DNA from: Acidimicrobiia bacterium
GTDB taxonomy: Bacteria > Actinomycetota > Acidimicrobiia > Acidimicrobiales > JANYDT01
DNA length: 24,606 nt
Assembly: GCA_044356125.1 (NCBI GenBank)
Contig: JBIKWW010000001.1
Location: 1-24,606 of the forward strand
Reading direction: 5' to 3'
A model generated the notes under the pieces. That model saw nothing but the letters and a program-made list of their open reading frames with translations, was not told where the DNA came from and made no database searches. Numbering within the stretch: position 1 is the stretch's first letter; every line of letters starts with the position of its first letter. Below, one piece after another: positions 4,385 through 24,318 of this stretch. Made by a program: the position numbers and the translations under genes.

Positions 4385-5815
4385 TCAGGCGAGCAGATCG
4401 ACGAAGCGCTCCAACTGGCGCAGGTTGCGGCACTCGTAGGCGCCGTCGGTGTGGGTCGCGTACTCGGTGAGGATGGAGTCGCCCGTGTCCCAGTAGCTGC
4501 GCGGCTCGGGGTTCAGCCAGTACACGTGGCGGGCCCGCTTGGCGATCTCCTTCACGACCCACGCCTGGGAGGCGTGGTAGTTGTTCCGGGCGTCGCCGAG
4601 CAGCAGCACGGTGGTCTTCGGGGTGATCTCCTTGCCCCACTTGGACCAGAACACCTCGAAGGCGTGGCCGTAGTCGGAGTGGCCGTCCACCCAGATCACG
4701 TCGGCCTCGGTGTTCACCTTGTGGATGGCCTCGGTGATGTCCTCGCAGTTCTCGAAGTACTTGGTGACCTCGTCGATGCCGTCGATGAACACGAAGCTGC
4801 GCACCTTCGAGAACTGGCCCTGGATGGCGTAGACGAGCTGCAGGGTGAAGCGGGCGAACGCCGCCACCGAACCCGAGATGTCGGCCACGACCATGATCTC
4901 GGGCTTGTTGGGACGGGGGTTCTTGAACACGGGCTCGGCGGGGACACCGCCGTAGCTGAGGGAGTGGCGGACGGTGCGGCGGAAGTCGAGCGGGCCCTTG
5001 CGCTTGTGACGGCGCTTGCGGGCCAGGCGCACGGCCAGCTTGCGCGTGAGGGGTTGGATGGCCTTGCGCAGCTGCACCATCTCCTCACGCGTGGCGTGCA
5101 TGAAGTCGACGTCTTCGGGCAGCGGCTTGCGCAGCGTCTTGGCCATGGCCTCGGCCCCGCGGTCGGCCACCAGCCGGCGACGGATCTCGGCCTCGATCTC
5201 CTGGCGCAGCTTCTGGATGCGGTCCTCGTACTCGTCGCGCTCGAGACGCTCCTCGAGCTCGGTGAGCTCGCCACCGGCCTGCTGCTTGGACGCGTCCATC
5301 AGCTTCTCGAGCATGCCCTCGAGATCGAGGTTGCGCAGCGTGCGGTACAGGTAGTAGGTGCCGCCGACGGGACGCCCCGGCTCCATGCCGCTGAAGCGCT
5401 TGACGGCTGCCTTGGCCAGGGCCTTCATCATCGCGTCGTCGGCGTTGAGGAGGGCCTGGTAGAGCATCTGGGCCAGCTCTTCGGGGGTGAGCCCTTCGAG
5501 CCCCCCGCCCTCGGCGGGCTGGCCTTCCTGGCCCTCGAGCATCATGGCCATCTCGCGGGCGGCGTCGTCGGCACCGTCCTCGCCGATGCGGTACTCGGCG
5601 CCGCGCATCGAGAAGTACACCTCGAAGACCGTGTCGAAGGCCTTCCAGTGCGCCTGGTTCTTGACGAGCGTGCAGGCCAGGGCCGCCTTGAAGGCGCCGC
5701 GGTCCTCGAGCGGGATCTCGCGGACGGCCGACATGGCGTCGAGGTTCTCGGTGAGCGAGACGGGGATCCCGGCGGCGCGCAGCTCGCCGATGAAGCCGTT
5801 GAGGAGCTTGAGCAT
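4385..5815 (-). CDS. CoxE-like vWA-domain protein, partner of the MoxR ATPase (476 aa)
   Basis: N-terminal FIGELRAAGIPVS, LDFRRTVRHSLSYGG, MIDAS-type ADISGSV, GHSDYG, LLLGDARNN, WLNPEP. Confidence 0.9.
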   Translation of the reverse strand: MLKLLNGFIGELRAAGIPVSLTENLDAMSAVREIPLEDRGAFKAALACTLVKNQAHWKAFDTVFEVYFSMRGAEYRIGEDGADDAAREMAMMLEGQEGQPAEGGGLEGLTPEELAQMLYQALLNADDAMMKALAKAAVKRFSGMEPGRPVGGTYYLYRTLRNLDLEGMLEKLMDASKQQAGGELTELEERLERDEYEDRIQKLRQEIEAEIRRRLVADRGAEAMAKTLRKPLPEDVDFMHATREEMVQLRKAIQPLTRKLAVRLARKRRHKRKGPLDFRRTVRHSLSYGGVPAEPVFKNPRPNKPEIMVVADISGSVAAFARFTLQLVYAIQGQFSKVRSFVFIDGIDEVTKYFENCEDITEAIHKVNTEADVIWVDGHSDYGHAFEVFWSKWGKEITPKTTVLLLGDARNNYHASQAWVVKEIAKRARHVYWLNPEPRSYWDTGDSILTEYATHTDGAYECRNLRQLERFVDLLA

Positions 5816-5828
5816 GGGCGGGCCCCGA

Positions 5829-6710
5829 CTACTTGTCGACGGCCAGTTCCTTGGCGGCCTTGGCGATGTCGGTCTGGTACTTCAGCAGGATGTGGAGCGT
5901 CTCCTTGGCGACCTGGGGGTCAATCTCGGACACGCCGAGCAGCACGAGCGTGCGGGCCCAGTCGAGGGTCTCGGAGACCGACGGGCTCTTCTTCAGCTCG
6001 ATCTGGCGGATGGAGCGGACGATGCGCACGATCTGGTCGGCGAGGTGCTCGTTCACGTCGGGCACCCGGGTGAGCACGATCTCCTTCTCGCGGTCCATCT
6101 GCGGGTAGTCGATGTGCAGGAACAGGCACCGGCGCTTGAGGGCCTCGGAGAGCTCCCGGGTGTTGTTGGAGGTGAGGAACACCAGCGGGATCTGCTTGGC
6201 CTGCACGGTGCCGAGCTCGGGGATCGAGACCTGGTAGTCGGAGAGGATCTCGAGGAGCAGGGCCTCGGTCTCCACCTCCACGCGGTCGACCTCGTCGATC
6301 AGCAGCACCACGGGCTCGTCGGAGCGGATGGCCTCGAGGAGGGGCCGGGTGAGGAGGAAGTCCTCGCTGAAGATGTCATCCTCGATCTGGGTCCAGGTCC
6401 CGGCCTGCTCGTCCATGACCCGCTGGGCCTGGATGCGCAGGAGCTGCTTCTTGTAGTTCCACTCGTAGAGGGCCTTGGCCTCGTCGAGCCCCTCGTAGCA
6501 CTGCAGGCGGATGAGCCGGGAGTTGGTCATCCGGGCGACGGACTTGGCCAGCTCGGTCTTGCCGGTGCCGGCCGGGCCCTCGACGAGGATGGGCTTGCCC
6601 AGGCGGTCGGCCAGGAACACGACCCCGGCGATGACGTCGTCGGCGAGGTAGTTGACCGACCGGAGCTGGTCCCTGACGACCTGCGGGCTGTCGAAGCGGG
6701 GGTTGGACAC
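5829..6710 (-). CDS. MoxR-family (CoxD-like) AAA+ ATPase (293 aa)
   Basis: True start GTG 6710 with AGGAG (6723-6719) 8 nt upstream; the 667-aa track ORF is an upstream artefact. Walker A GPAGTGKT, LQCYEGLD, ALYEWNY, Walker B LLIDEVD, TSNNTRELSEALKRRC. Confidence 0.93.
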   Translation of the reverse strand: MSNPRFDSPQVVRDQLRSVNYLADDVIAGVVFLADRLGKPILVEGPAGTGKTELAKSVARMTNSRLIRLQCYEGLDEAKALYEWNYKKQLLRIQAQRVMDEQAGTWTQIEDDIFSEDFLLTRPLLEAIRSDEPVVLLIDEVDRVEVETEALLLEILSDYQVSIPELGTVQAKQIPLVFLTSNNTRELSEALKRRCLFLHIDYPQMDREKEIVLTRVPDVNEHLADQIVRIVRSIRQIELKKSPSVSETLDWARTLVLLGVSEIDPQVAKETLHILLKYQTDIAKAAKELAVDK

Positions 6711-6781
6711 GGATGGGACTCCTGGATGGGCTGGCACGCACGCCGCTGCACGGGCGCCGGGTGGTGGGAACGGCTCCGAGC

Positions 6782-6787
6782 ACCCTA
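6782..6787 (-). promoter_or_regulatory. Putative -10 box (TAGGGT) for the moxR-vWA operon
   Basis: TAGGGT on the - strand about 70 nt upstream of GTG 6710, followed by a leader containing an SD. Confidence 0.5.
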
Positions 6788-6840
6788 GGCGCTGGCCGAC
6801 GGCGGGAAACAAGTGATCCCGGCCAGCCCGGTTCGACCGC

Positions 6841-6989: not shown

Positions 6990-7015
6990 GAGGACGGGAC
7001 CGGGGCCCCGTCCTC
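6990..7015 (-). terminator. Likely terminator hairpin of the ABC operon
   Basis: GAGGACGGG (6990-6998) / CCCGTCCTC (7007-7015), 9 nt beyond the stop codon at 7025. Confidence 0.55.
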
Positions 7016-7024
7016 CCGCCAGGC

Positions 7025-8455
7025 TCAGCGCTTGTAGGCCTTGGCGGCGGCCGAGTTGTAGGGCTTGATGAGCAACAGGCCGCCGGGGGTGGCGATGTCG
7101 ACCTTCATGATGTAGGTGTCGGTCGGAGGGACCCGCTGGGCCGGGGTGACGTAGTTCCACTCCGGGTACATGCCGCCCAGACTGACCCGGCCGAGGTTGG
7201 CCATGGCCTTCTTCATGCCGTCGGGCGAGAGGTCGCCGAGGGAGACGGCCTTCTCCAGCAGCGCCACGACCGTCTTGGCCTGGGCCCAGCCCCACTCGGT
7301 GGCCGGGTTCACGTTGCCCAGGTACTCGGGGGCGTACTTCTTGATGTCGTCCATGTGCTCGCGCATGCCGGGGATCGACGTGTCGCCCCACTGGGCGCCG
7401 TCGATGGCCACGATGACCTGCTTGCCGAACAGCGCCGAGTTCTCCGGAGTGACGCGCCGGGAGGCGAACGACGGGGCCGCCGACAGCATGATCGGGTTGT
7501 ACCCGATCTTGTCCATCGACGTCAGCAGCGGCGGCATGTGCGCCTCGCCGGAGATGGTGTTGGACACGGCGTCGCACCCGGCGTTCTTCAGCTGCTGGGC
7601 CGTGGCGTCGGCGGTCGTGAAACGGATCTTGGGGCCGGCGTTGAACTTGAAGGTTGCCGCTGCGTAGTCGAAGCCCTCCTCGCCGGTCACGCCGTAGGGG
7701 TTGGGGGCGATGGACAGCGAGCAGATCCGCTTGCCGGCGCCGCCACCCTCCTTGATGTACCAGTCGATGGCGTTGATGATCTGCGTCTGGTACGTGGCCC
7801 CGACGGGCAGCCACTGCTCGCCCACGACCCACTCGAAGTCGAGCGAGATCGGGGAGGCGATGAGGTTGGCCTGCTTGAGCGGATCACGCAGGGCCTGGGC
7901 GACGGGCGTGCCGTACACCTGACCGACGAGGGCGATGTTGTCCTTCATCTCGGCGAGCGCCTTGGCCGCCTCGCCGGCGTCGTAGTAGGTCTCCTTGAAG
8001 ACCGTGTCGATCTTGTACTTGCCGGCGATGCCGCCGGCGTCGTTCACCCGCGAGATGAAGGAGTTGTAGCCCGCCGTCAGGGCCTTGCCGCCGTCGGCGA
8101 ACAGCGCGCTGGACGGGAACGAGGCGTTGGTCGACACGTTGCCGATGTAGCCGACCTTGATGGTCTTGCCGTCGAAGCCACGGGCCGGGGCGAGGGCGGC
8201 GGGAGCCGCGGGCGTGGCCGCCGCGCTGCCCGAGCCCGACGACGCCGCGGCCGTCGTGGGCGCCGCTGCCGCAGCGGCCTTGCGGTAGACGCGCTTGGCG
8301 CCTTCCCTGACGCAGGTGAGGCCGTCTTTGACCTCACCGAGTTTGGTGCAGCGCTGACCGGCCTTGACGGCCGCCGACGCCTGCAGCGTCGGGATGGCCA
8401 TCGTGGCGACGGCAACGGCGGCGGTGGCGCCGACGATGCGGATCGGACGAATCAT
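7025..8455 (-). CDS. LivK-like (type I PBP fold) ABC substrate-binding protein with an N-terminal two-Cys module (476 aa)
   Basis: Signal peptide ending ASA|A, no lipobox. Ala/Pro/Ser linker, then GFDGKTIKVG, VNDAGGIAG, GQVYGTP, EWGWAQA. Last gene of a livFGHM operon. Confidence 0.88.
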   Translation of the reverse strand: MIRPIRIVGATAAVAVATMAIPTLQASAAVKAGQRCTKLGEVKDGLTCVREGAKRVYRKAAAAAAPTTAAASSGSGSAAATPAAPAALAPARGFDGKTIKVGYIGNVSTNASFPSSALFADGGKALTAGYNSFISRVNDAGGIAGKYKIDTVFKETYYDAGEAAKALAEMKDNIALVGQVYGTPVAQALRDPLKQANLIASPISLDFEWVVGEQWLPVGATYQTQIINAIDWYIKEGGGAGKRICSLSIAPNPYGVTGEEGFDYAAATFKFNAGPKIRFTTADATAQQLKNAGCDAVSNTISGEAHMPPLLTSMDKIGYNPIMLSAAPSFASRRVTPENSALFGKQVIVAIDGAQWGDTSIPGMREHMDDIKKYAPEYLGNVNPATEWGWAQAKTVVALLEKAVSLGDLSPDGMKKAMANLGRVSLGGMYPEWNYVTPAQRVPPTDTYIMKVDIATPGGLLLIKPYNSAAAKAYKR

Positions 8456-8564
8456 GGAGATGCCCCCTGAAGGCTGGATGGGATTCGAGGTCCCGGGCTG
8501 GGCCCGGCCCGCCCGGGACCGGGCGGGTGTGGTCGGGACGGTCCCCGCTTGGTCGGGGCCAGCA

Positions 8565-8580
8565 CGTGACCGACGTCACG
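8565..8580. promoter_or_regulatory. Palindromic operator-like site CGTGA-N6-TCACG (CRP/GlxR-like box)
   Basis: CGTGACCGACGTCACG in the 181-nt livM-livK gap, about 110 nt upstream of the SBP start. Confidence 0.5.
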
Positions 8581-8636
8581 GGCTGCCGTGCATTCTGGCA
8601 CAGCGTCGGTCGGGTTCGACGATGAGGTCGGTTCAG

Positions 8637-9911
8637 TTACTTGCCGAGGGGCCAGGTGCGGAAGTACTGCCGCGCCCGGGCCCACATGCCGGCCAGGCCG
8701 GCGGGGTAGCGGATCAGGAAGATCACCGTGAAGAGCCCGAACAGCATCGGAGGAAGGTTCTCGGTGTTGAGGCCCTTCTTGCCGAGGTCGGTCTGGACCA
8801 GGGGCAGCTTCGACAGGAACTCCTGGTGGTAGCGGATCACCTCGAAGCTGAGGGCGTAGAGCATGGCCCCGAGGACCGAGCCCGACACGCTGCCGACGCC
8901 GCCGATCACGAGCATGGCGACGAAGGTGATGGACAGCGACACCCCGAAGCTGGTGGGGTTCACCCGGCCGAGGAAGCTGCCGTAGAGCGCCCCGGCCAGG
9001 GCGCCCATGCCCCCGGACACGGCGAACGCCCAGGTCTTGGTGTACATCTGGCGGACGCCGATCACCTCGGCGCTCAGGTCCCGGTCGCGCACCGACATCA
9101 TCGCCCGGCCCTGGCGGCTGCGCAGCAGGTTGCGGGCGAGCAGGGCGGTGATGCCCACGCAGAGCCAGATCACCCAGAAGTAGCCGACCTTGTCGGCGTA
9201 GTAGAGGCGGTCGAAGATCACCGTCGACCCGTCCTCGGCCGAGCGAAGCACCACGTTGTGGTCGGGCCAGATGGTGAACTGCAGCGGCGGAACCGCACGC
9301 GGGTTGCCCTCACCACCGGTGAGGGTGTCCCAGTTGCGCACCAGGTGCTCCACCCCGAAGACGAGGACCAGCGACACGATGGCCAGGTAGTTGCCCCGCA
9401 GCCGGAGGGCGAAGGGTCCGATGGCCGCCGCCACCAGAGCCCCGACCACGACGGCCAGCACGATGGCGACGATCGAGGGCAGGGGGCGGCCCCCGAGCTC
9501 GAAGTCGGCACCGAAGTAGGCCAGGGAGAACGTGCCGATGTAGAGGAAGGCGGTGTGGCCGAGCGAGATCTGGCCGGTGTTGCCGATCAGCAGGTTGAGG
9601 CCGATGGCGGCGATGGCGAACACGCCGGCCTGGCACATCACGAACAGCCACTTCTCGTTGAAGGGCATGCCGGGCATGAAGCCGTTCGGGAGGTGAACGC
9701 CCTTGATCCCGAGCCACGACCATCCGATGGGGATGCTGATCCACACGAACGCCGCCACCAGCAGGGCGATCTTGGTTCCGTTGCCCCGGAACTGGCGGAC
9801 GTCGGCGGCGTAGTCGGCGACGGTGCGGAGCCGGGCGTCGCGGCGCCCCAGCACCACCGTGGCGGCGATGACGGCGGCGACGCCGAGCATGACGAAGACG
9901 GAACCCGGCAT
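8637..9911 (-). CDS. livM: Branched-chain amino acid/fatty-acid-type ABC permease, LivM-like (424 aa)
   Basis: Start ATG 9911 (MPGSVFVML). GLNLLIGNTGQISLGH, LRLRGNYLAIVSL, TGGEG, SRQGRAMMSVRD, GGVGSVSGSVLG. Confidence 0.9.
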   Translation of the reverse strand: MPGSVFVMLGVAAVIAATVVLGRRDARLRTVADYAADVRQFRGNGTKIALLVAAFVWISIPIGWSWLGIKGVHLPNGFMPGMPFNEKWLFVMCQAGVFAIAAIGLNLLIGNTGQISLGHTAFLYIGTFSLAYFGADFELGGRPLPSIVAIVLAVVVGALVAAAIGPFALRLRGNYLAIVSLVLVFGVEHLVRNWDTLTGGEGNPRAVPPLQFTIWPDHNVVLRSAEDGSTVIFDRLYYADKVGYFWVIWLCVGITALLARNLLRSRQGRAMMSVRDRDLSAEVIGVRQMYTKTWAFAVSGGMGALAGALYGSFLGRVNPTSFGVSLSITFVAMLVIGGVGSVSGSVLGAMLYALSFEVIRYHQEFLSKLPLVQTDLGKKGLNTENLPPMLFGLFTVIFLIRYPAGLAGMWARARQYFRTWPLGK

Positions 9912-9913
9912 GG

Positions 9914-10855
9914 CTAGACCCTTCTGACCTCGCCGTGGCCGAACAGGCCCGACGGTCGCACGATCAGGATGATGAGCATGGCGATCCAGGGAACGAGGCT
10001 GAAGAAGCCGAACCCGAGGAAGTTCTCGTACTTCGGCGAGTAGCCGGCGAAGAGCTGCTCGAGGATGCCGATGACCATGCCGCCGACGATCGCTCCCTCG
10101 CTGGAGTCGATGCCGCCGAGCACCATGGCGGCGAAGCCGAACAGGGCGAACAGGGGGATCGAGGGGTCGACCGACCGGTCGGCCCCCGAGGACAGCATGA
10201 TGCCGGCCAGGGCTCCGAGGGCGGCGGCGAGCGCCCATGACAGGCCGAAGATGAAGTTGGCGCTGATGCCCTGGGCCATGGCCGCTTCCTGGTCGTGGGC
10301 GGTGGCCCGCATGGCCACACCCACCCGGCTGCGGTTGAACACGAAGAAGAACAGCACCGTGATGACGACGGAGATGATCAGCGTGACGAGGTCGACCAGG
10401 CGGATGGACACGTTCTCGATGCCGAGCCCGACGGTCCTGGTGCCGAACGGGCTGCGCAGGACCAGCGCGCCCGTGCCCCAGGCGGCGTGGGCACCGGTGT
10501 CGAGGATGATGTTGACCCCGAGGGTGGCCATGATCGCGGCGAACACCGGACGACCCCGGAATCGCCGCACGATCACCATCTCGATGAGCCAGCCCAGGGC
10601 ACCGGCGATGATCAGGGCGATGATCACCGCCAGCCAGTACGGGAGCTCGGCGATGTAGGCCGACGGCGTGAAGTTGATCCCCGGGTCGGGACCCGACACC
10701 CAGTACACGAGATAGCCGCCCAGCCCCATGACGGCACCTTGGGCGAAGTTCAGCACGTGCGTGGCCCGGTAGACGATGACGTAGCTGAGGGCGATGAGGG
10801 CGTAGATGGCGCCGCGGGCCACCCCGCCGACGAAGTAGTTGAGGAACTGGGTCAT
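9914..10855 (-). CDS. livH: ABC permease, LivH-like (313 aa)
   Basis: Start ATG 10855 (MTQFLNYFVGG). YALIALSYVIVYRATHVLNFAQG, SRVGVAMRATAHD, GGIDSSEGAIVGG. Confidence 0.92.
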   Translation of the reverse strand: MTQFLNYFVGGVARGAIYALIALSYVIVYRATHVLNFAQGAVMGLGGYLVYWVSGPDPGINFTPSAYIAELPYWLAVIIALIIAGALGWLIEMVIVRRFRGRPVFAAIMATLGVNIILDTGAHAAWGTGALVLRSPFGTRTVGLGIENVSIRLVDLVTLIISVVITVLFFFVFNRSRVGVAMRATAHDQEAAMAQGISANFIFGLSWALAAALGALAGIMLSSGADRSVDPSIPLFALFGFAAMVLGGIDSSEGAIVGGMVIGILEQLFAGYSPKYENFLGFGFFSLVPWIAMLIILIVRPSGLFGHGEVRRV

Positions 10856-12108
10856 GTCGTCACCTGCTTGGGGGTGGCGGAACGGTTGGCGTCGGCCCCC
10901 ACCGTCACGACGGGCAGGCCGAGCGCGCCGAGCACCTCGGACGCCTCGGGGCCGATGGGTTCGGAGACGACGACGGCCCGGGTGCGCGTGAGCCCGAGGC
11001 GGCGCCGCAGCGGCCCGGGCACGCTGATGCCCGAGAGCACGGCGAAGGACCCCGCACCCAGGGCCATGGCGATCGCCCCGAGGATCCTCAGGTAGTCGTT
11101 GGCCGACGGCGTGAGGGCGAACAGGACGAGGACCGCCGCGACGGTGACGATGCCGAGGGCCCGCAGGGGCGGGAAGCCCGGCGTCCTCGGGGTCGTGGCC
11201 GGAGTCCGCAGGCGGAAGCCCCGTCGCAGGGCCAGGCGCTTGAGGCCCCGGGTGGCCCGGACCCGACGATCGAGGTCCGTGGCCAGGGAGGCGGCCCAGG
11301 CTGGCGTGGCGTGGAGCAGGGTCGGCTGCACGGCCGTGATCTCGAGGGTGGCCAGCCGGTCGTCCTGACCGATGGCGAGCGACAGCCCGTGGCGCATGGC
11401 GCCGGTGATCGACAGTGCCCGCTCGGTGGGATCGGCGAAGCTGTGCTGGGGGTACAGCTCGTCGGTCGGCCCGAGCCCCACCGTCGCCCCGATCCGGTCC
11501 CCGGCGGCGAGCAGCGTGGCGTGGTCGGTGCGGTGCACCTCGGCGCCGTCGACCTCGACGACGGCCACGGTGTCGGGGGTGAGCGAGGCCAGCGCACGGC
11601 GCCAGGATCCATCGGAGCGAAGCGATTCGAGGGCGGCGAAGGACATCCGGCGGTCGGCGTCGGGACGACCGGCATCGTCGAGGTGGCGCAGGCCCCGGGT
11701 GTCCATGACGATCACCGGGGCATCTCCGATGGCACCGCCGTCGACCGCCTTGTCGTACTGCTCCTGATCGGAGACCACCACGACGGCCGGGGACGTGGCC
11801 TGCATCGCCCGGCTCACGGCCGACGGGCTCGCCGAGGTGGGGTCGAGGGCCAGGACGGCCGCGCCGAGACCCTGGGCGGCCAGGTCGGTCACGATCCACT
11901 CGACCCGGTTCGTCGCCACCAGGGCCACGACGGACCCGGCGGTGACGCCCAGCGAGGCCAGGCCGTCGCCCACCCGCTCGACCCGCTCGGCCAGGGCGGC
12001 CCAGGTCGTCGGCTGCCAGATGCCGAGCCCGTGGCTGCGCACGGCGACCTGCGTCCCGCGCTGGCGGGCCTGGTCGAGCAGCAGGCCCGGCAGGGTGCCC
12101 GCGCTCAC
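10852..12108 (-). CDS. Degenerate, C-terminally truncated AMP-binding (long-chain acyl-CoA ligase-like) protein with an inserted two-helix membrane segment (418 aa)
   Basis: GTG 12108 overlaps the livG stop; its TGA overlaps the livH ATG. Ligase-like N-terminus (TLPGLL, GIWQPTTW, NRVEW, DQEQYDK). No YTSGTTGxPKG P-loop, no YGxTE motif, no C-terminal domain. Confidence 0.8.
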   Translation of the reverse strand: MSAGTLPGLLLDQARQRGTQVAVRSHGLGIWQPTTWAALAERVERVGDGLASLGVTAGSVVALVATNRVEWIVTDLAAQGLGAAVLALDPTSASPSAVSRAMQATSPAVVVVSDQEQYDKAVDGGAIGDAPVIVMDTRGLRHLDDAGRPDADRRMSFAALESLRSDGSWRRALASLTPDTVAVVEVDGAEVHRTDHATLLAAGDRIGATVGLGPTDELYPQHSFADPTERALSITGAMRHGLSLAIGQDDRLATLEITAVQPTLLHATPAWAASLATDLDRRVRATRGLKRLALRRGFRLRTPATTPRTPGFPPLRALGIVTVAAVLVLFALTPSANDYLRILGAIAMALGAGSFAVLSGISVPGPLRRRLGLTRTRAVVVSEPIGPEASEVLGALGLPVVTVGADANRSATPKQVTT

Positions 12109-12923
12109 GCCCCCGCCCCCAGGTACGCCTCGATGACCCGCGGATCGGCGCGCACGTCGGCGGGCAGTCCCTCGCCGATCTTCTGGCCGAAGTCGATGAC
12201 GACGATGCGCTCGGCGACGTCCATCACCATGTGCATGTCGTGCTCGACGAGGATCATCGAGATGCCGAGCTCTCGCCGGGCCTCCAGGATGTAGCGGGCC
12301 ATGTCCTCGGTCTCGGTGGCGTTCATGCCGGCGACGGGCTCGTCGAGCAGGAGCAGCTTGGGGTCCATGCACAGGGCCCGGGCCAGCTCCATGCGCTTCT
12401 GCACGCCGTAGGGCAGCATGCCGACCGGCTGGCCCCGGTACACGTGCAGGTCGAGGAGCTCCATGACCTCCTCGACCCGGCGCCGGTGCAGGACCTCCTG
12501 GCGCTTGGTGGTTCCGGCGAAGGCGAGCCCGGCCAGGAAGCCGCCCTTCATGAGGTGGTGGCGCCCGAGCATCAGGTTGGCGACGACGTCGAGGCCCACG
12601 AACAGACCGATGTTCTGGAAGGTGCGGGCGATGCCCTGCTGCACGGTGAAGGGCGGGTTCGTGCCGATCAGCTCGACCCCGTCGAGCTTGATGGAACCCT
12701 CCTGGGGCCGGTACACGGCGTTGAGGCAGTTGAAGACCGACGTCTTCCCCGCCCCGTTCGGACCGATGATGGCGAACAGCTCGTTGCGACGGACGTCGAA
12801 GCTGAGGTCGTTGATCGCCGTCACACCGCCGAAGCGCAGGGTGACGTTGCGCACCTCGAGCAGGGGCTTCAGCTCGGCGCCCACCGCCGCGCCCACCCGC
12901 TGGGTGATTCCGGGGACGGTCAT
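12105..12923 (-). CDS. livG: ABC transporter ATP-binding protein, LivG-like (272 aa)
   Basis: Start ATG 12923. GPNGAGKT, ARTFQN, LPYGVQKRMELARAL, LLLDEPVAGM, LVEHDM, DPRVIEAYLG. Confidence 0.93.
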   Translation of the reverse strand: MTVPGITQRVGAAVGAELKPLLEVRNVTLRFGGVTAINDLSFDVRRNELFAIIGPNGAGKTSVFNCLNAVYRPQEGSIKLDGVELIGTNPPFTVQQGIARTFQNIGLFVGLDVVANLMLGRHHLMKGGFLAGLAFAGTTKRQEVLHRRRVEEVMELLDLHVYRGQPVGMLPYGVQKRMELARALCMDPKLLLLDEPVAGMNATETEDMARYILEARRELGISMILVEHDMHMVMDVAERIVVIDFGQKIGEGLPADVRADPRVIEAYLGAGA

Positions 12924-12936
12924 CGTGGCCTGCCCA

Positions 12937-13887
12937 TCACTCGGCCCACTCCTTGGGTCGGTACGTCTTGAGGTCCCGGTAGCTGGTGTGCTCGCTCTCA
13001 CCGCCGAGGTAGAGGGCCTTGATGTCGGGATCGTCGAGCAGTTCGGCGGCCGCCCCGTGCTTGGCGACACGTCCGGTCTCCATCACGTAGGCGTAGTCGC
13101 TGTTGCGCAGGGCCATGGCGGCGTTCTGCTCGACGAGCAGCACGCTCGTACCCTGCCGGTTGATCTCGCCGATGATCTCGAAGATCTGCTCGACGATCAG
13201 CGGGGCGAGGCCGAGCGAAGGCTCGTCCATCAGCAGCAGGCGGGGGTTGGCCATGAGGGCCCGGCCGATGGCGAGCATCTGCTGCTCGCCGCCCGAGAGG
13301 TAGCCGGCGATCTGGCGGCGACGCTCGAGCAGCCGGGGGAAGAGCGATATCACCCGCTCGTGGGACGCCTTCACCTCGGCCTTGTCCTTGCGCGTGTAGG
13401 CACCGGCCCGCAGGTTCTCCTCGACGGTGAGCTGGGCGAAGATCCGCCGGCCCTCCATGACCTGGGCCATGCCCCGACGTACGTTGGCGGCGGCGTCGCC
13501 ACCGGTGATGTCGGACCCGTCGAAGTGCACCGACCCGGCGGTCACCGCACCGCCCTGGTAGAGCAGCAGGCCCGAGATGGCCCGCAGGAGCGTGGTCTTC
13601 CCGGCGCCGTTGGCGCCCAGGATGGCCACGACCTTGCCGGTCGGCACGTCGAGCGACACGCCCCGTAGGACGTTGATGGCGCCGCCGTAGACGACCTCGA
13701 GCTCGCGCACGGTCAAGATGGCGGACGCGCCCGAAGAGGCGGGGGCGGACGCGCCCGAAGAGGCGGGGGCGGACGCGCCCGAAGAGGCGGGGGCGGACGC
13801 GCCCGAAGAGGCGGGGGTGGAGGGGCCGGTGGCGGCGGTGGCGGAGGCGTTGGATCCGGACATGGGGGGCTCGGTGACGGCAGTCAC
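12937..13887 (-). CDS. livF: ABC transporter ATP-binding protein, LivF-like, with a low-complexity N-terminal extension
   Basis: Start GTG 13887 (or ATG 13863). GANGAGKT, EGRRIF, LSGGEQQM, LLMDEPSLGLAP, VEQNA. C-terminal SYRDLKTYR tail typical of ligase-associated LivF proteins. Confidence 0.92.
   Translation of the reverse strand: MTAVTEPPMSGSNASATAATGPSTPASSGASAPASSGASAPASSGASAPASSGASAILTVRELEVVYGGAINVLRGVSLDVPTGKVVAILGANGAGKTTLLRAISGLLLYQGGAVTAGSVHFDGSDITGGDAAANVRRGMAQVMEGRRIFAQLTVEENLRAGAYTRKDKAEVKASHERVISLFPRLLERRRQIAGYLSGGEQQMLAIGRALMANPRLLLMDEPSLGLAPLIVEQIFEIIGEINRQGTSVLLVEQNAAMALRNSDYAYVMETGRVAKHGAAAELLDDPDIKALYLGGESEHTSYRDLKTYRPKEWAE
13721..13816 (-). repeat. Four perfect copies of a 24-bp unit encoding (PASSGASA)4 in the LivF N-terminus
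   Basis: GCGGACGCGCCCGAAGAGGCGGGG repeated at 13721, 13745, 13769 and 13793, with no spacers. Confidence 0.97.
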
Positions 13888-20389: not shown

Positions 20390-21811
20390 ATGGTGCGGTC
20401 GCTGCGCGCCGACCGGGCCGTCGCCCGGCGCCTCGACGACGGCCTCCGGCTCATCAGGGAGCAGGCCGGGATCCCGGTCGCCTTTCCTGACGCGGTGACC
20501 CGCCTGGCCGCCGAACGGGTCGCCGCCGGCCCCCGCCCGGTGGACCGGGTCGACCTGACGGAGCTGGACTTCGTCACCCTCGACCCGGCGACGAGCACCG
20601 ACCTCGACCAGGCCTTCGTCGTCGGACGCGACGGTGGCACCGTGGTCGTCCACTACGCCATCGCCGATGTGGCCGCCTTCGTGGTGCCCGGCGACGCCAT
20701 CGATGCCGAGGCCTGGCGGCGGGCCGTCACCGTCTACGCCCCCGACGGCTCCACGCCGCTCTACCCCCGGGTCATCAGCTCGGGGGCGGCGTCGCTGCTG
20801 CCCGACGGTCCGCGTCCGGCGGTGGTGCTGGAGGTCGGTGTGGCCCCCGACGCCACCCCCACGCTGCGGCGCGTCCGCCGGGCCCTGGTCCGCAGCCGGG
20901 CCAAGCTCGCCTACGAGACCACCACCCCCGACGACCTCCCCGAGCCGGTCCGGGAACTGGCCCGGCGCATGCAGGACGGCGAGCGGCGTCGGGGAGCGTT
21001 CCGCATCGACACCCCGGAGCAGGAGGTCGTCGAGGATGCCGCCGTACCGGGCGGCATCCGCCTGCGCTTCGCCGCCCGGCAGGCCTCCGAGGAGGTCAAC
21101 GCGTCGATGTCGCTGGCGGTCAACCTGGCCGTGGCCTCGGCCATGATCGGGGCCGGGACCGGTCTGTTCCGCATGATGGCCGACCCGACCGACCGCGAGG
21201 TGGCGTCGCTGCGCCGGACCGCCGCCTCCTTCGGGATCGACTGGGCCCCCGACGAGTCCCTGCGCGACCTCGTCGCCCGCATCGATGCCACCGAGCCCCG
21301 GGCGGCCGCCCTGCTGATGGCGGCCCGTCGGGCCGGGGGCGGCGCATCGTATGCATACCTACGGACCGACGGCAGTGGCCCGGCACCCTGGCACGCTGCC
21401 ATGGCCGCGCCCTACGCACATGTCACGGCACCCATGCGCCGGCTGGCCGACCGCTTCGTGCTGGAGCTCGTCAGCGCGCAGATGAACGGCGAGCCCGTGC
21501 CCGACTTCGTGGACGAAGCTCTCCCCCGGCTCCCGCAGCTCATGGACGACGCCGACGGCCGTGCGGCCAGGATCGACCGCGCGGCCATCGACCTGGCCGA
21601 GTGCCTGATGCTCGAGCCCGCCATCGGGCGCCGCTTCGAGGCCGTGGTGGTGGAGACCGATCCGTCGGGACCGGCCACGGTGCACATCGACGATCCTGCC
21701 GTCGCCGTGCGCGTACGGCTGCGCGGCGTCGAGCCGGGTGACGTCGTCGAGCTGCGCCTGACCGGCGTCGACACCGCCCGGCGGCGCCTGGACTTCACCC
21801 GCACCCGCTGA
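20390..21811 (+). CDS. RNB-domain (RNase II/R family) 3'-5' exoribonuclease lacking obvious N-terminal cold-shock domains (473 aa)
   Basis: GGAG SD at 20381. FVTLDPATSTDLDQAF, HYAIADV, YAHVTAPMRRLADR, and a C-terminal S1-like beta region. Confidence 0.88.
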   Translation: MVRSLRADRAVARRLDDGLRLIREQAGIPVAFPDAVTRLAAERVAAGPRPVDRVDLTELDFVTLDPATSTDLDQAFVVGRDGGTVVVHYAIADVAAFVVPGDAIDAEAWRRAVTVYAPDGSTPLYPRVISSGAASLLPDGPRPAVVLEVGVAPDATPTLRRVRRALVRSRAKLAYETTTPDDLPEPVRELARRMQDGERRRGAFRIDTPEQEVVEDAAVPGGIRLRFAARQASEEVNASMSLAVNLAVASAMIGAGTGLFRMMADPTDREVASLRRTAASFGIDWAPDESLRDLVARIDATEPRAAALLMAARRAGGGASYAYLRTDGSGPAPWHAAMAAPYAHVTAPMRRLADRFVLELVSAQMNGEPVPDFVDEALPRLPQLMDDADGRAARIDRAAIDLAECLMLEPAIGRRFEAVVVETDPSGPATVHIDDPAVAVRVRLRGVEPGDVVELRLTGVDTARRRLDFTRTR

Positions 21812-21860
21812 GGGGCAGTTCACCCGCACCCGCTGAGCGGCACCGGCCGGCACCGGCCGG
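21794..21860. repeat. Duplicated gene end (19-bp direct repeat) plus a 10-bp tandem repeat
   Basis: TTCACCCGCACCCGCTGAG at 21794-21812 and 21819-21837; GGCACCGGCC x2 at 21839-21858. Confidence 0.9.
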
Positions 21861-21861
21861 C

Positions 21862-22953
21862 TCAGAGCAGCACGAGGTCGTCTCGGTGCACGAGCACGGT
21901 GGGGGCCTCCTCGGGCAGGTCGGCGGACCGACGGCCGGCCACGGCGCGGGCCCCCTCGGCGCTGTAGCGGGCCAGCCCCCGGGCGATCACGCGCCCGTCG
22001 CCGTCGGCGATCTCGATGGTGGCGCCCTCGTCGAAGTCGCCGACGACCCCCACGACGCCGGCGGGCAGCAGCGAGGTGCCCCGCTCGGTCAGCGCCCGTA
22101 CGGCTCCGCCGTCGATGACCACCCGGCCCTCGACCTCGCCGGCGAAGCCGATCCACAGCTTGCGGGCGCTGAGCGGCCGGGCGTGGGCGGCAACGACCGT
22201 ACCCACCCCGTCCACGTCGTCGGCTGCGTCGACCACCACCCGCGGGCGGGTGGCCGAGGCGATGACCGCCCGGACGCCCGACAGCGAGGCCATCCGGGCC
22301 GCCTGCAGCTTGGAGGTCATGCCCCCGCTGCCCCGGGCCGAACCGGTGCCGCCGGCCATGGCCAGAACCTCGGGGGTGACCGCCTCCAGCCGTCGCACCA
22401 AGGTGGCGGCCGGATCGGTGCGCGGATCGGCCGTGTACAGCCCGGCGATGTCGGTGAGCAGCACGAGCACGTCCGCGGCGATGAGGTGGCCGACGAGGGC
22501 GGCGATGCGGTCGTTGTCGCCGAAGCGCAGCTCGGCATCGGACACGGCGTCGTTCTCGTTCACCACGGGCACGACACCGAGCTCGAGCAGGCGCAGGAAC
22601 GTCTGGCGGGCGTGGAGGTACTGGGTCCGGTCGAAGAAGTTCCCGGGGACGAGCAGCATCTGGCCGCTCACGATGCCGAGCCGGGCGAAGGTGTCGTCCC
22701 AGGTGCGCATCAGGCGGCTCTGGCCGACCGACGAGACCGCCTGCTTGGTGAGCATGTCCGACGGCCGACGGTCCCCCATGCCGAGCGCCTCGAGGCCGGC
22801 GGCCACGGCTCCCGACGAGACCACCACCACCCGGTCACCCCGTCGGCGCAGCGCCGCGACCTCGTCGGCGACCCGCTCGATGGCGGCCCGCTGGATCAGG
22901 CCGCGCTCGTCCGTCAGCGATGAGGTCCCGATCTTGACGACGACGGTGGCCAC
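21862..22953 (-). CDS. proB: Glutamate 5-kinase with C-terminal PUA domain (363 aa)
   Basis: VVKIGTSSL, VSSGAVAAG, VGQSRLM, NENDAV, FGDNDRIAA, GSGGMTSKLQAA, SLLPAGV. Downstream of obgE. Confidence 0.97.
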   Translation of the reverse strand: MATVVVKIGTSSLTDERGLIQRAAIERVADEVAALRRRGDRVVVVSSGAVAAGLEALGMGDRRPSDMLTKQAVSSVGQSRLMRTWDDTFARLGIVSGQMLLVPGNFFDRTQYLHARQTFLRLLELGVVPVVNENDAVSDAELRFGDNDRIAALVGHLIAADVLVLLTDIAGLYTADPRTDPAATLVRRLEAVTPEVLAMAGGTGSARGSGGMTSKLQAARMASLSGVRAVIASATRPRVVVDAADDVDGVGTVVAAHARPLSARKLWIGFAGEVEGRVVIDGGAVRALTERGTSLLPAGVVGVVGDFDEGATIEIADGDGRVIARGLARYSAEGARAVAGRRSADLPEEAPTVLVHRDDLVLL

Positions 22954-22968
22954 GGCACGACGCTCCGG

Positions 22969-24258
22969 TCAGCCTTCGTAGTCGAAGGCGAAGGCACCGA
23001 TGCGGACCACGTCACCGGTGCGGGCCCCGGCCCGGGCCAGGGCACGGTCGATGCCCAATCGGCTGATGCGGCGCTGCAGCTCGGCGATGACCTGAGGGTT
23101 GGTCAGATCGGAGAGCGCCACCGCCCGCAGCGCCTCGCGGCCGAGCACGACCCACGCGCCGTCGTCGTCGCGTCGGATCTCGAGGGCGTCCTCGGCCGGG
23201 CGGTGCACCACGTAGAGCTCGCCGCGGGGCTCGCTGCGCCGGGCCGCCTGCACGAGCGGCACCAGGGCGCGCAGCAGTTCGGTCACCCCCGCTCCGGTGA
23301 CCGCCGAGATGCACAGGCCGGGGGCGTCGGGCACGAGGAGCTCGAGGTCCTCGCGGGGAGCGCCGAGGGCCCCGATGACGTCGAGCTTGGTGCCCACGAC
23401 CAGACGCGGGCGCTCGGCCAGCTCGGGGCGGTAGCGGCGCAACTCCTCGACGAGCACCTCCTCCTGACGGGAGGGGCTCTGGTCGGCGCTGAGGTCGACG
23501 AGCACGAGCAGCACCCGGGCCCGCTCGACGTGGCGGAGGAACTGGAACCCGAGCCCCCGGCCCTCGCTGGCCCCTTCGATGAGGCCGGGGATGTCGGCGA
23601 CGACGAACTCGACGTCGCCGCGGGGATCGGCGTCGGTCCCCCACCCGCCCAGCCGCACGACACCGAGGTTGGGCTCGAGGGTCGTGAACGGGTAGTCGGC
23701 GATCTTGGGCCGGGCCGCCGAGATCACCGAGATGAGCGTCGACTTGCCGGCGTTGGGGAAGCCGACGAGGGCGACGTCGGCCATCAGCTTGAGCTCGAGG
23801 TTGCACCAGCGCTCCTCGCCGACCTCGCCCTGCTCGGCGAAGTTGGGGGCGCGGCGTCGGTTGGACAGGAAGCTCTGGTTGCCCCGTCCTCCCCGACCGC
23901 CGCCGGCGGCCTTCCAGCGGTGGCCCTCGGCCGCCAGGTCGGCCACGACGTTGCCGTCGAGATCGCTGATGACGGTTCCGACCGGCACGTTCACCACCGT
24001 GTCGCCGCCGTTGCGGCCGTGACGGCCGTTGCCGCCGCCGTGGGTGCCGTCCTCGGCCCGCCGGAACGGGTGGTCCCGGAAGGCGAGCAGGGACGCGACG
24101 TTGCGGTCGGCGACGACCCAGACGTCACCCCCGTCGCCCCCGTTGCCGCCGTTGGGCCCGCCCTGGGGCACGAACGGCTCGCGGCGGAAGGCGACCGCCC
24201 CGGCCCCGCCGTCGCCGCCCTTGACGTGCAGTTGGGCCTCGTCGACGAACCCGCTCAT
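22969..24258 (-). CDS. obgE: GTPase ObgE/CgtA (429 aa)
   Basis: Start ATG 24258 (MSGFVDEA) with GAGGA SD. Gly-rich Obg fold, GFPNAGKS, DYPFTTLEPN, DIPGLIEGA, TKLD, ISA, C-terminal GDVVRIG domain. Confidence 0.97.
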   Translation of the reverse strand: MSGFVDEAQLHVKGGDGGAGAVAFRREPFVPQGGPNGGNGGDGGDVWVVADRNVASLLAFRDHPFRRAEDGTHGGGNGRHGRNGGDTVVNVPVGTVISDLDGNVVADLAAEGHRWKAAGGGRGGRGNQSFLSNRRRAPNFAEQGEVGEERWCNLELKLMADVALVGFPNAGKSTLISVISAARPKIADYPFTTLEPNLGVVRLGGWGTDADPRGDVEFVVADIPGLIEGASEGRGLGFQFLRHVERARVLLVLVDLSADQSPSRQEEVLVEELRRYRPELAERPRLVVGTKLDVIGALGAPREDLELLVPDAPGLCISAVTGAGVTELLRALVPLVQAARRSEPRGELYVVHRPAEDALEIRRDDDGAWVVLGREALRAVALSDLTNPQVIAELQRRISRLGIDRALARAGARTGDVVRIGAFAFDYEG

Positions 24259-24291
24259 CAGCCGTTCCTCGTGATCCGGGCCCGGACGCGC

Positions 24292-24318
24292 CACAGGCCG
24301 GCAGCGCGCCGGCCTGTG
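24292..24318 (-). terminator. Hairpin between rpmA and obgE
   Basis: CACAGGCCGG (24292-24301) / CCGGCCTGTG (24309-24318), 10-bp stem. Confidence 0.45.

Follow-up and report, generated by a model that had tools for sequence, protein, structure and literature searches.

The window analysed here is a 24,606-nucleotide stretch of DNA from an Acidimicrobiia bacterium (contig JBIKWW010000001.1), with a G+C content of about 72%, in which long spurious frames are common. Its minus strand carries a compact operon with, in this order, livF-like and livG-like genes, a gene that we call X (window 10852-12108; product P0002, 418 aa), livH-like and livM-like genes, and the gene of a LivK-type binding protein. 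In soil and freshwater bacteria, few ABC systems are as numerous as the liv-type (HAAT) importers. We report that X most likely encodes an undescribed pseudoenzyme of the adenylate-forming (ANL) ligase superfamily, anchored in the membrane and embedded in a liv-type operon, the membrane hairpin being its new feature. Full-text literature searches yielded background only, and no description of gene X or its family was found.

The coordinates of all features are collected in Table 1. A first-pass annotation of this DNA had described the frame of X as intact and as overlapping both livG and livH by 4 nt. Direct reading confirmed this, with 418 codons, a GTGA shared by the livG stop and the GTG start of X, and an ATGA shared by the X stop and the livH start. 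The livM gene follows, its ATG lying 2 nt past the livH stop. A longer frame opening at GTG 12372 was rejected as the gene, because the homologues begin at the 12108 start. Although the transporter subunits are assigned by NCBIfam and Pfam matches, none of them reached an NCBIfam equivalog cut-off.

The product of X is a homologue of the ANL superfamily. Against the Pfam AMP-binding model (PF00501) it scored 74 bits, for a cut-off of 29.9 (E = 9.8e-21), and its top NCBIfam model was FadD11 (NF038343), with 53.4 bits for a cut-off of 950 and a match restricted to model positions 17-282 of 585. The signature blocks of the FadD11/COG1022 N-terminal domain (N-domain) are present, namely GxW..TW, DQEQxDK, RG, QPT and LRxxLGL, so that the long-chain acyl-CoA ligase N-terminus recognised in the first-pass annotation is real. 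Within the DQEQYDK block, Q117, D119 and K120 are invariant in 40 of 40 family sequences. We considered whether DQEQxDK could be a transporter-specific docking motif and rejected the idea, as the pattern occurs in ordinary full-length ligases of many phyla.

In an alignment with the canonical ligases of such operons, VAVVEVDG--AEVHRTDH stands in X in place of the P-loop TSGTTGxPK, a loss that had been noticed before. Neither the P-loop pattern ([ST][ST]G[ST]TGxPK) nor the YGxTE pattern had a match in X or in any of the 40 family members. Motifs A3, A5 and A7 (TGD), the hinge arginine of A8, the lysine of A10 and the entire C-terminal domain (C-domain) are missing. The protein ends about 15 poorly conserved residues beyond the YGQTE column, and no ligase remnant was found 3′ of X, where livH begins directly; the earlier claims of a stop at the YGxTE site and of no leftover ligase sequence were both correct. 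Because the P-loop, A5, A7, A8, A10 and the C-domain are absent, X is predicted to be unable to perform adenylation as it is known for the ANL superfamily. That X is one part of a split enzyme whose other part is supplied by another gene was ruled out, as the P-loop is gone inside the retained half. The window's own genome holds one X copy, together with weak matches to ordinary ligases, and a search of a protein atlas returned generic AMP-binding clusters only.

We then have to ask what remains of the ligase in structural terms. A single-chain AlphaFold model built with the 40-sequence family alignment reached a mean predicted local distance difference test score (pLDDT) of 94.2 and a predicted template modelling score (pTM) of 0.91; only the last nine residues (410-418) were disordered, with pLDDT below 50. 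Foldseek comparison of this model with the PDB retrieved ANL N-terminal domains only, at E values of about 1e-14 over 280-295 columns, among them the amide bond synthetase 8pyy, the coronafacic acid ligase 7a9j, the FadD5 N-domain 8r2r and ttLC-FACS 1ult. The model thus predicts that X retains a folded N-domain of an ANL ligase, comprising its first two subdomains. In the model, the former P-loop becomes a beta-hairpin with strands 181-187 and 190-195 (DSSP). Past the membrane hairpin described below, a strand (378-381), a helix (387-395) and a further strand (400-402) were modelled with high confidence.

Two hydrophobic helices, of 19 and 22 residues in the AlphaFold model, stand just before the PLRRRLGL motif and fill a gap of about 35 residues that full-length ligases show in the alignment; their insertion at this place had been proposed in the first-pass annotation. 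Kyte-Doolittle hydropathy peaks at 2.32 (residues 315-333) and 1.87 (residues 340-358) in X. Across the family, the 19-residue peaks range from 1.9 to 3.1, and every member has two of them at about 310-370. The hairpin is free of gaps in 40 of 40 sequences (21 + 4 + 23 columns). Over the same sequences, the mean count of lysine and arginine is 3.8 before the hairpin, 0.4 in its loop and 4.8 after it. The hairpin therefore obeys the positive-inside rule, and the charge pattern fits both ends being cytoplasmic. The segment had been expected to be transmembrane, and by hydrophobicity, conservation without gaps and charge it behaves as such; from hydropathy, charge distribution and the model together, we infer that X is inserted in the membrane. 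A near-invariant arginine, R341 (ND..R context, window 11086-11100, minus strand), lies at the outer end of the second membrane helix, an odd place for a conserved charge; it could contact LivH/LivM or a carboxylate substrate.

X is one member of a sizeable family. A whole-library HMMER search gave 39 proteins at E < 1e-30, and at the 50%-identity level the family comprises about 40 representatives of 403-457 aa that align end to end. All of them share the truncation, the loss of the P-loop and A5, and the hairpin, at identities down to 24-33%, so that X is not the strain-specific allele that would have been expected of a decaying gene. Conservation is unequal along the protein. The former P-loop region varies in both sequence and length and has the lowest mean column conservation of all regions (0.34), and the C-terminal tail is very variable, whereas PLRRRxGL is the best-conserved block after the hairpin, in the region with the highest conservation (0.60). 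Database names given to X relatives are ‘long-chain acyl-CoA synthetase’, ‘AMP-binding enzyme’ or ‘hypothetical protein’.

In one-genome-per-species collections, the X family was found in 24 loci, nearly all from Acidimicrobiia or Acidimicrobiales, the exceptions being one labelled ‘Actinomycetes’ and one 5-kb contig in a ‘Betaproteobacteria’ bin. The latter (L017, 5.4 kb) carries a typical F-G-X-H-M operon, with about the same identity to the window proteins as the Acidimicrobiia loci L018 and L022, and is probably a mis-binned contig rather than a case of gene transfer. Within the window's Acidimicrobiales family, X was present in 23 of the 24 sampled genomes, spread over 7 genera and often in two copies. 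Of the order's 16 other families, 13 gave no match to the X family. Partial N-domain matches came from two further families, and from several genomes of family f1, inside open frames of 622-884 aa, which look like full-length ligases. Across many studies, at least 19 metagenome runs of lakes or fresh water contain nearly identical DNA.

A few members depart from the common form. P0052 (L092, 5001-6497), P0059 and P0077 belong to the hairpin clade and have long extra inserts: P0052 apparently has four hydrophobic segments, and Ser/Thr/Ala stretches of low complexity are found, together with long tails, in P0059 and P0077. The 324-aa P0007 was considered as a decayed X allele and rejected, since livH and livM are also fragmented in its contig. 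There (L093, GCA_036704275.1, 3001-6478), each of the genes X, livH and livM has been called as several short pieces, which is probably assembly frameshift noise and not decay specific to X.

The association of X with the transporter genes is strict. The order livF-livG-X-livH-livM, usually followed by livK, was found in 32 of 32 related loci, and X was never seen outside the livG-livH slot among them. The livH-like gene lies directly downstream of X in every locus reaching that far, and the livG-like protein is 74-91% identical across related loci. The 4-nt overlaps on both sides of X recur in L001, L003, L005 and L006. A second, paralogous operon type (L005, L020, L024, L031) has the same F-G-X-H-M core, with livK placed divergently upstream; in L005, genes for a histidine kinase and a LytTR regulator adjoin the operon as well. 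In the tree, each operon type has its X proteins in a clade of their own, and since the paralogous operon kept the same core, the association of X with the transporter survived duplication and relocation. Natural fusions of X with LivG or LivH were searched for among the homologues and none was found.

We next consider selection. By the NG86 method, the ratio of non-synonymous to synonymous substitution rates (dN/dS) of X was 0.41, 0.35 and 0.28 for pairs 87%, 61% and 50% identical, respectively; the closest pair gave 0.10 by YN00. The corresponding NG86 values were 0.22 and 0.09 for livG, and 0 to 0.17 for livH. A ratio near 1 had been named as the sign of decay, and the values measured lie well away from it; judged from these sequence comparisons, X is under purifying selection. 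Four public runs covering the operon contained no indels, and the variants in X amounted to two synonymous changes and T254A. In a metatranscriptome run (X20), contigs fell on the operon, including 11520-12027 within X. Word depth was uneven in this run, about 25-34 on the binding-protein gene (7000-8170) and about 2-14 on 8170-13800, with 2-7 on X. Such unevenness looks more like RNA than DNA carry-over, without being proof of it, and the higher depth on the binding-protein gene could reflect a separate or more stable transcript.

The slot between livG and livH is occupied elsewhere by other ligase-like proteins: active full-length ligases, full-length degenerate forms and soluble truncated forms. 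The first-pass annotation had stated that such operons usually carry a full-length ligase. This holds, canonical 676-aa and 610-aa ligases, P0015 (L084) and P0053 (L085), being found between livG and livH; the degenerate full-length and soluble truncated forms are found there too. P0015 and P0053 are COG1022/FAA1-type (FadD11/FadD15-like) enzymes and resemble X by their slot, their 4-nt coupling and a homologous N-domain. Proteins of their type differ from it in being 580-680 aa long, in having TSGTTGxPK, YGxTE, TGD, the A8 arginine, the A10 lysine and a PF23562 C-domain, all missing from X, and in having no hydrophobic hairpin. As far as we searched, no test of a transport role for the ligases of liv-type operons was found in the literature.

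The degenerate full-length set consists of P0016 (L083, 5001-6611), P0143, P0017, P0151, P0018, P0139 and P0158, which are 535-585 aa long with an eroded P-loop, A5, A7 and A10; P0016 lies in an H-M-F-G-X-K operon. Like X, these proteins (P0016/P0143, P0017/P0151, P0018/P0139/P0158) have an eroded or lost P-loop and A5, and an ADPxER-like replacement of A4; unlike X, they keep the C-domain and have no hairpin. From their sequences, they look like separate, probable pseudo-ligases. Soluble halves without a P-loop are represented by P0088 (L090, 177-1427), P0117 (Nocardia sp.) and about 20 others, which end at the same point as X. P0088 lies in the livG-livH slot, and its start and stop both overlap the neighbouring genes. 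These half-ligases share with X the loss of the P-loop and the truncation just after the (F/W)xxxGVP strand, but lack the membrane hairpin, which is confined to the clade of X.

Two N-domain trees, both quick and midpoint-rooted, were used to order these forms. The hairpin family is a single clade in them (support 98-100), whereas the soluble truncated forms are scattered over several branches. Since at least 4 label changes are needed to account for the latter, truncation at A5 probably happened repeatedly. One tree placed the degenerate full-length forms beside the hairpin family as its sister group (support 90), and the other, which included the soluble half-ligases, did not. An evolutionary order in which degenerate full-length forms came first and truncated forms with a hairpin later was therefore dropped. 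As the same slot is held by active, degenerate and soluble truncated forms, a non-catalytic role of the N-domain seems to have been kept repeatedly.

Other ANL-fold proteins are linked to a membrane, or to an importer of lipids or acids. Of the FATP/SLC27 and ‘vectorial acylation’ systems, FATP is membrane-anchored; FadD5 is encoded in the mycobacterial mce1 importer operon. Both are active enzymes with complete motifs and a C-domain, which X lacks, and the FATP anchor is N-terminal, whereas that of X would be an internal hairpin. Without adenylation, X itself would therefore not perform vectorial acylation.

We consider it reasonably probable that X is an accessory subunit of a LivFGHMK-type (HAAT) importer, tethered to the membrane and without catalytic activity. 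It would descend from a COG1022/FAA1-type acyl-CoA ligase carried between livG and livH, as in many LivFGHMK-type operons. In one Acidimicrobiales family, the ability to adenylate would have been lost, the first two N-domain subdomains would have been kept as a cytoplasmic module, and a membrane hairpin of two helices, whose ends both lie in the cytoplasm, would have been gained. Translational coupling on both sides would make X together with the transporter, as a stoichiometric subunit. Its hairpin would pack against LivH/LivM and keep the pseudo-ligase module next to the ATPases on the cytoplasmic side, where the module may receive or sense the imported substrate, which probably bears a carboxylate, or organise its hand-over to soluble enzymes. 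Since X has no chemistry and yet is under selection, it should act by binding or structure only. The loss of all catalytic elements, an N-domain under purifying selection and its predicted fixation in the membrane together argue for a non-enzymatic job in the transporter. The first-pass annotation had likewise favoured a retained non-catalytic accessory over a decaying pseudogene, and the synteny in 32 of 32 loci, the presence in 23 of 24 genomes, the dN/dS of 0.28-0.41 and the gap-free hairpin side with it.

As to the substrate, the single PDB match of the binding protein was 4n03 (E = 8e-16), which we take to be the structure of a Thermomonospora curvata protein with a bound fatty acid. In R. 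palustris, binding proteins of the LivK type have aromatic, fatty and dicarboxylic acids as ligands (PMC3223731).

Several points weigh against an accessory subunit. The membrane assignment rests on hydropathy, charge distribution and a predicted model, and the contact of X with LivFGHM, its physical association with the transporter and its ligand-handling role are put forward as plausible suggestions. X is also the least constrained gene of the operon, with a dN/dS two to four times that of its neighbours, and the fastest-evolving one, at 33-40% identity where livF/livG are at 75-80% and livH/livM at 45-55%. The family is almost wholly contained in one taxonomic family, so that its synteny partly reflects shared ancestry and is not made of independent cases. 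Finally, the signal in the X20 RNA library may include DNA carry-over.

Other explanations can be set against an accessory subunit. X might anchor an active paralogue, the dead N-domain pairing with a soluble full-length ligase at the mouth of the transporter without binding substrate itself. ANL ligases such as ttLC-FACS, a structural match of X, dimerise through their N-domains; full-length ligases appear to exist in the same genomes, to judge from the weak N-domain matches in longer open frames, and L003 and L083 have a gene with AMP-binding and AMP-binding_C domains about 3-4 kb from the operon. Yet the 24.6-kb window has no active ligase gene, and no partner gene is conserved alongside the operon across loci, so that we regard this arrangement as unlikely. 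Alternatively, the remnant pocket might bind a cytoplasmic metabolite, for instance the acid brought in by the transporter or the CoA ester of that acid, and throttle the ATPases in the manner of the MalK and MetN regulatory domains. A folded N-domain has been kept, with ADPxE and QPT blocks conserved near the former acyl pocket, and X adjoins the ATPase gene livG in all loci. However, all known nucleotide- and CoA-contacting motifs are gone, and the former active-site loop is the least conserved region of the protein, which leaves pocket binding putative and a sensor distinctly unlikely.

A membrane protein with an unrelated job, for instance in lipid or envelope metabolism, that is merely co-transcribed with the transporter seems very improbable. 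It is true that several loci are syntenic over a wider neighbourhood, with the MoxR and VWA genes to one side and an AAA ATPase to the other (PspA only in L003), but X keeps to the livG-livH slot even where the paralogous operon lies in a different neighbourhood, and overlaps its neighbours by 4 nt on both sides. We find it harder still to believe that X is a decaying remnant, kept only because its frame carries the translational coupling of livG to livH. The highest substitution rate of the operon and the variability of the former P-loop region and C-terminal tail would suit such decay. Against it stand intact frames and a constant architecture at the lowest family identities and in two paralogous operon types, a dN/dS well below 1 with no indels in four independent runs, the uninterrupted hairpin and the conserved PLRRRxGL block; moreover, the AlphaFold confidence of 94 obtained from the 40-sequence alignment implies coevolving contacts, and a 1.25-kb spacer is unnecessary for coupling.

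We hold a broader proposal only tentatively. The ANL N-domain may be a genuine structural part of a subclass of HAAT importers, a cytoplasmic acceptor or docking module for the acid taken up, important enough to the transporter to be kept after its chemistry was lost, which in Acidimicrobiia became an integral membrane subunit through a newly evolved hairpin. Were this true, the ‘ligase’ genes of liv-type operons across bacteria would primarily be transporter subunits. X would offer a natural experiment in this respect, as a subunit whose action is confined to structure or binding. It would also be a further case of a pseudoenzyme made into a membrane protein by insertion of an internal hairpin, and it suggests that the name ‘long-chain acyl-CoA synthetase’ has been given to hundreds of database entries that are no enzymes.

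Table 1. Position of gene X, its motifs and the other genes of the operon in the window.
Feature	Position	Strand	Basis
Gene X, predicted ANL-derived pseudo-ligase with membrane hairpin, 418 aa	10852..12108	-	Intact frame, Pfam, AlphaFold, Foldseek
GTGA overlap, livG stop/X GTG start	12105..12108	-	Direct read
DQEQYDK, residues 114-120, near-invariant hallmark of COG1022/FAA1-type ligase N-domains	11749..11769	-	40-sequence alignment
Former P-loop (A3) site, residues 181-196, modelled as a tight beta-hairpin with a two-residue turn	11521..11568	-	Alignment and DSSP on model
ADPTER, residues 225-230, occupying the A4 (LPLxHxxE) site	11419..11436	-	Alignment; ADPxE kept in family
Predicted transmembrane hairpin: helices 314-332 and 338-359, joined by a short outer loop	11032..11169	-	Hydropathy, AlphaFold, charge
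PLRRRLGL, residues 366-373, homologous to LRxxLGL before the last N-domain strands of ligases	10990..11013	-	Alignment
ATGA overlap, X stop/livH ATG	10852..10855	-	Direct read
livF-like ATPase, start uncertain, N-terminal Ser/Ala/Pro repeat	12937..13863 (upper end approximate)	-	NCBIfam LivF 4.4e-67
livG-like ATPase, 272 aa	12105..12923	-	NCBIfam LivG 4.7e-78, below equivalog cut-off
livH-like permease, 313 aa	9914..10855	-	NCBIfam UrtB/LivH ~1e-30
livM-like permease	8637..9911	-	NCBIfam LivM 3.4e-28
LivK-type (Peripla_BP_6) substrate-binding protein, 476 aa	7025..8455	-	Peripla_BP_6 in L001/L003/L005 homologues (precomputed Pfam)

Some further features of the window were recorded. Ahead of its ATPase core, the livF-like protein seems to begin with a Ser/Ala/Pro-rich tandem repeat with about 4 copies of SGASAPAS (~13690-13863, minus strand). 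The binding-protein gene is followed by genes for a MoxR-type AAA ATPase and a VWA_CoxE protein (4385-6812, minus strand), and this pair is kept beside the X-type operon in L001 (11175-13245), L003 (11210-13224), L013 and L015, at 75-92% identity. Farther out (2-667, 743-2587 and 20390-24294) lie ordinary genes, for a class-II DAHP synthase, a PAS-GGDEF-EAL protein, an RNase II-type exonuclease, a glutamate 5-kinase (AA_kinase and PUA) and an Obg GTPase.

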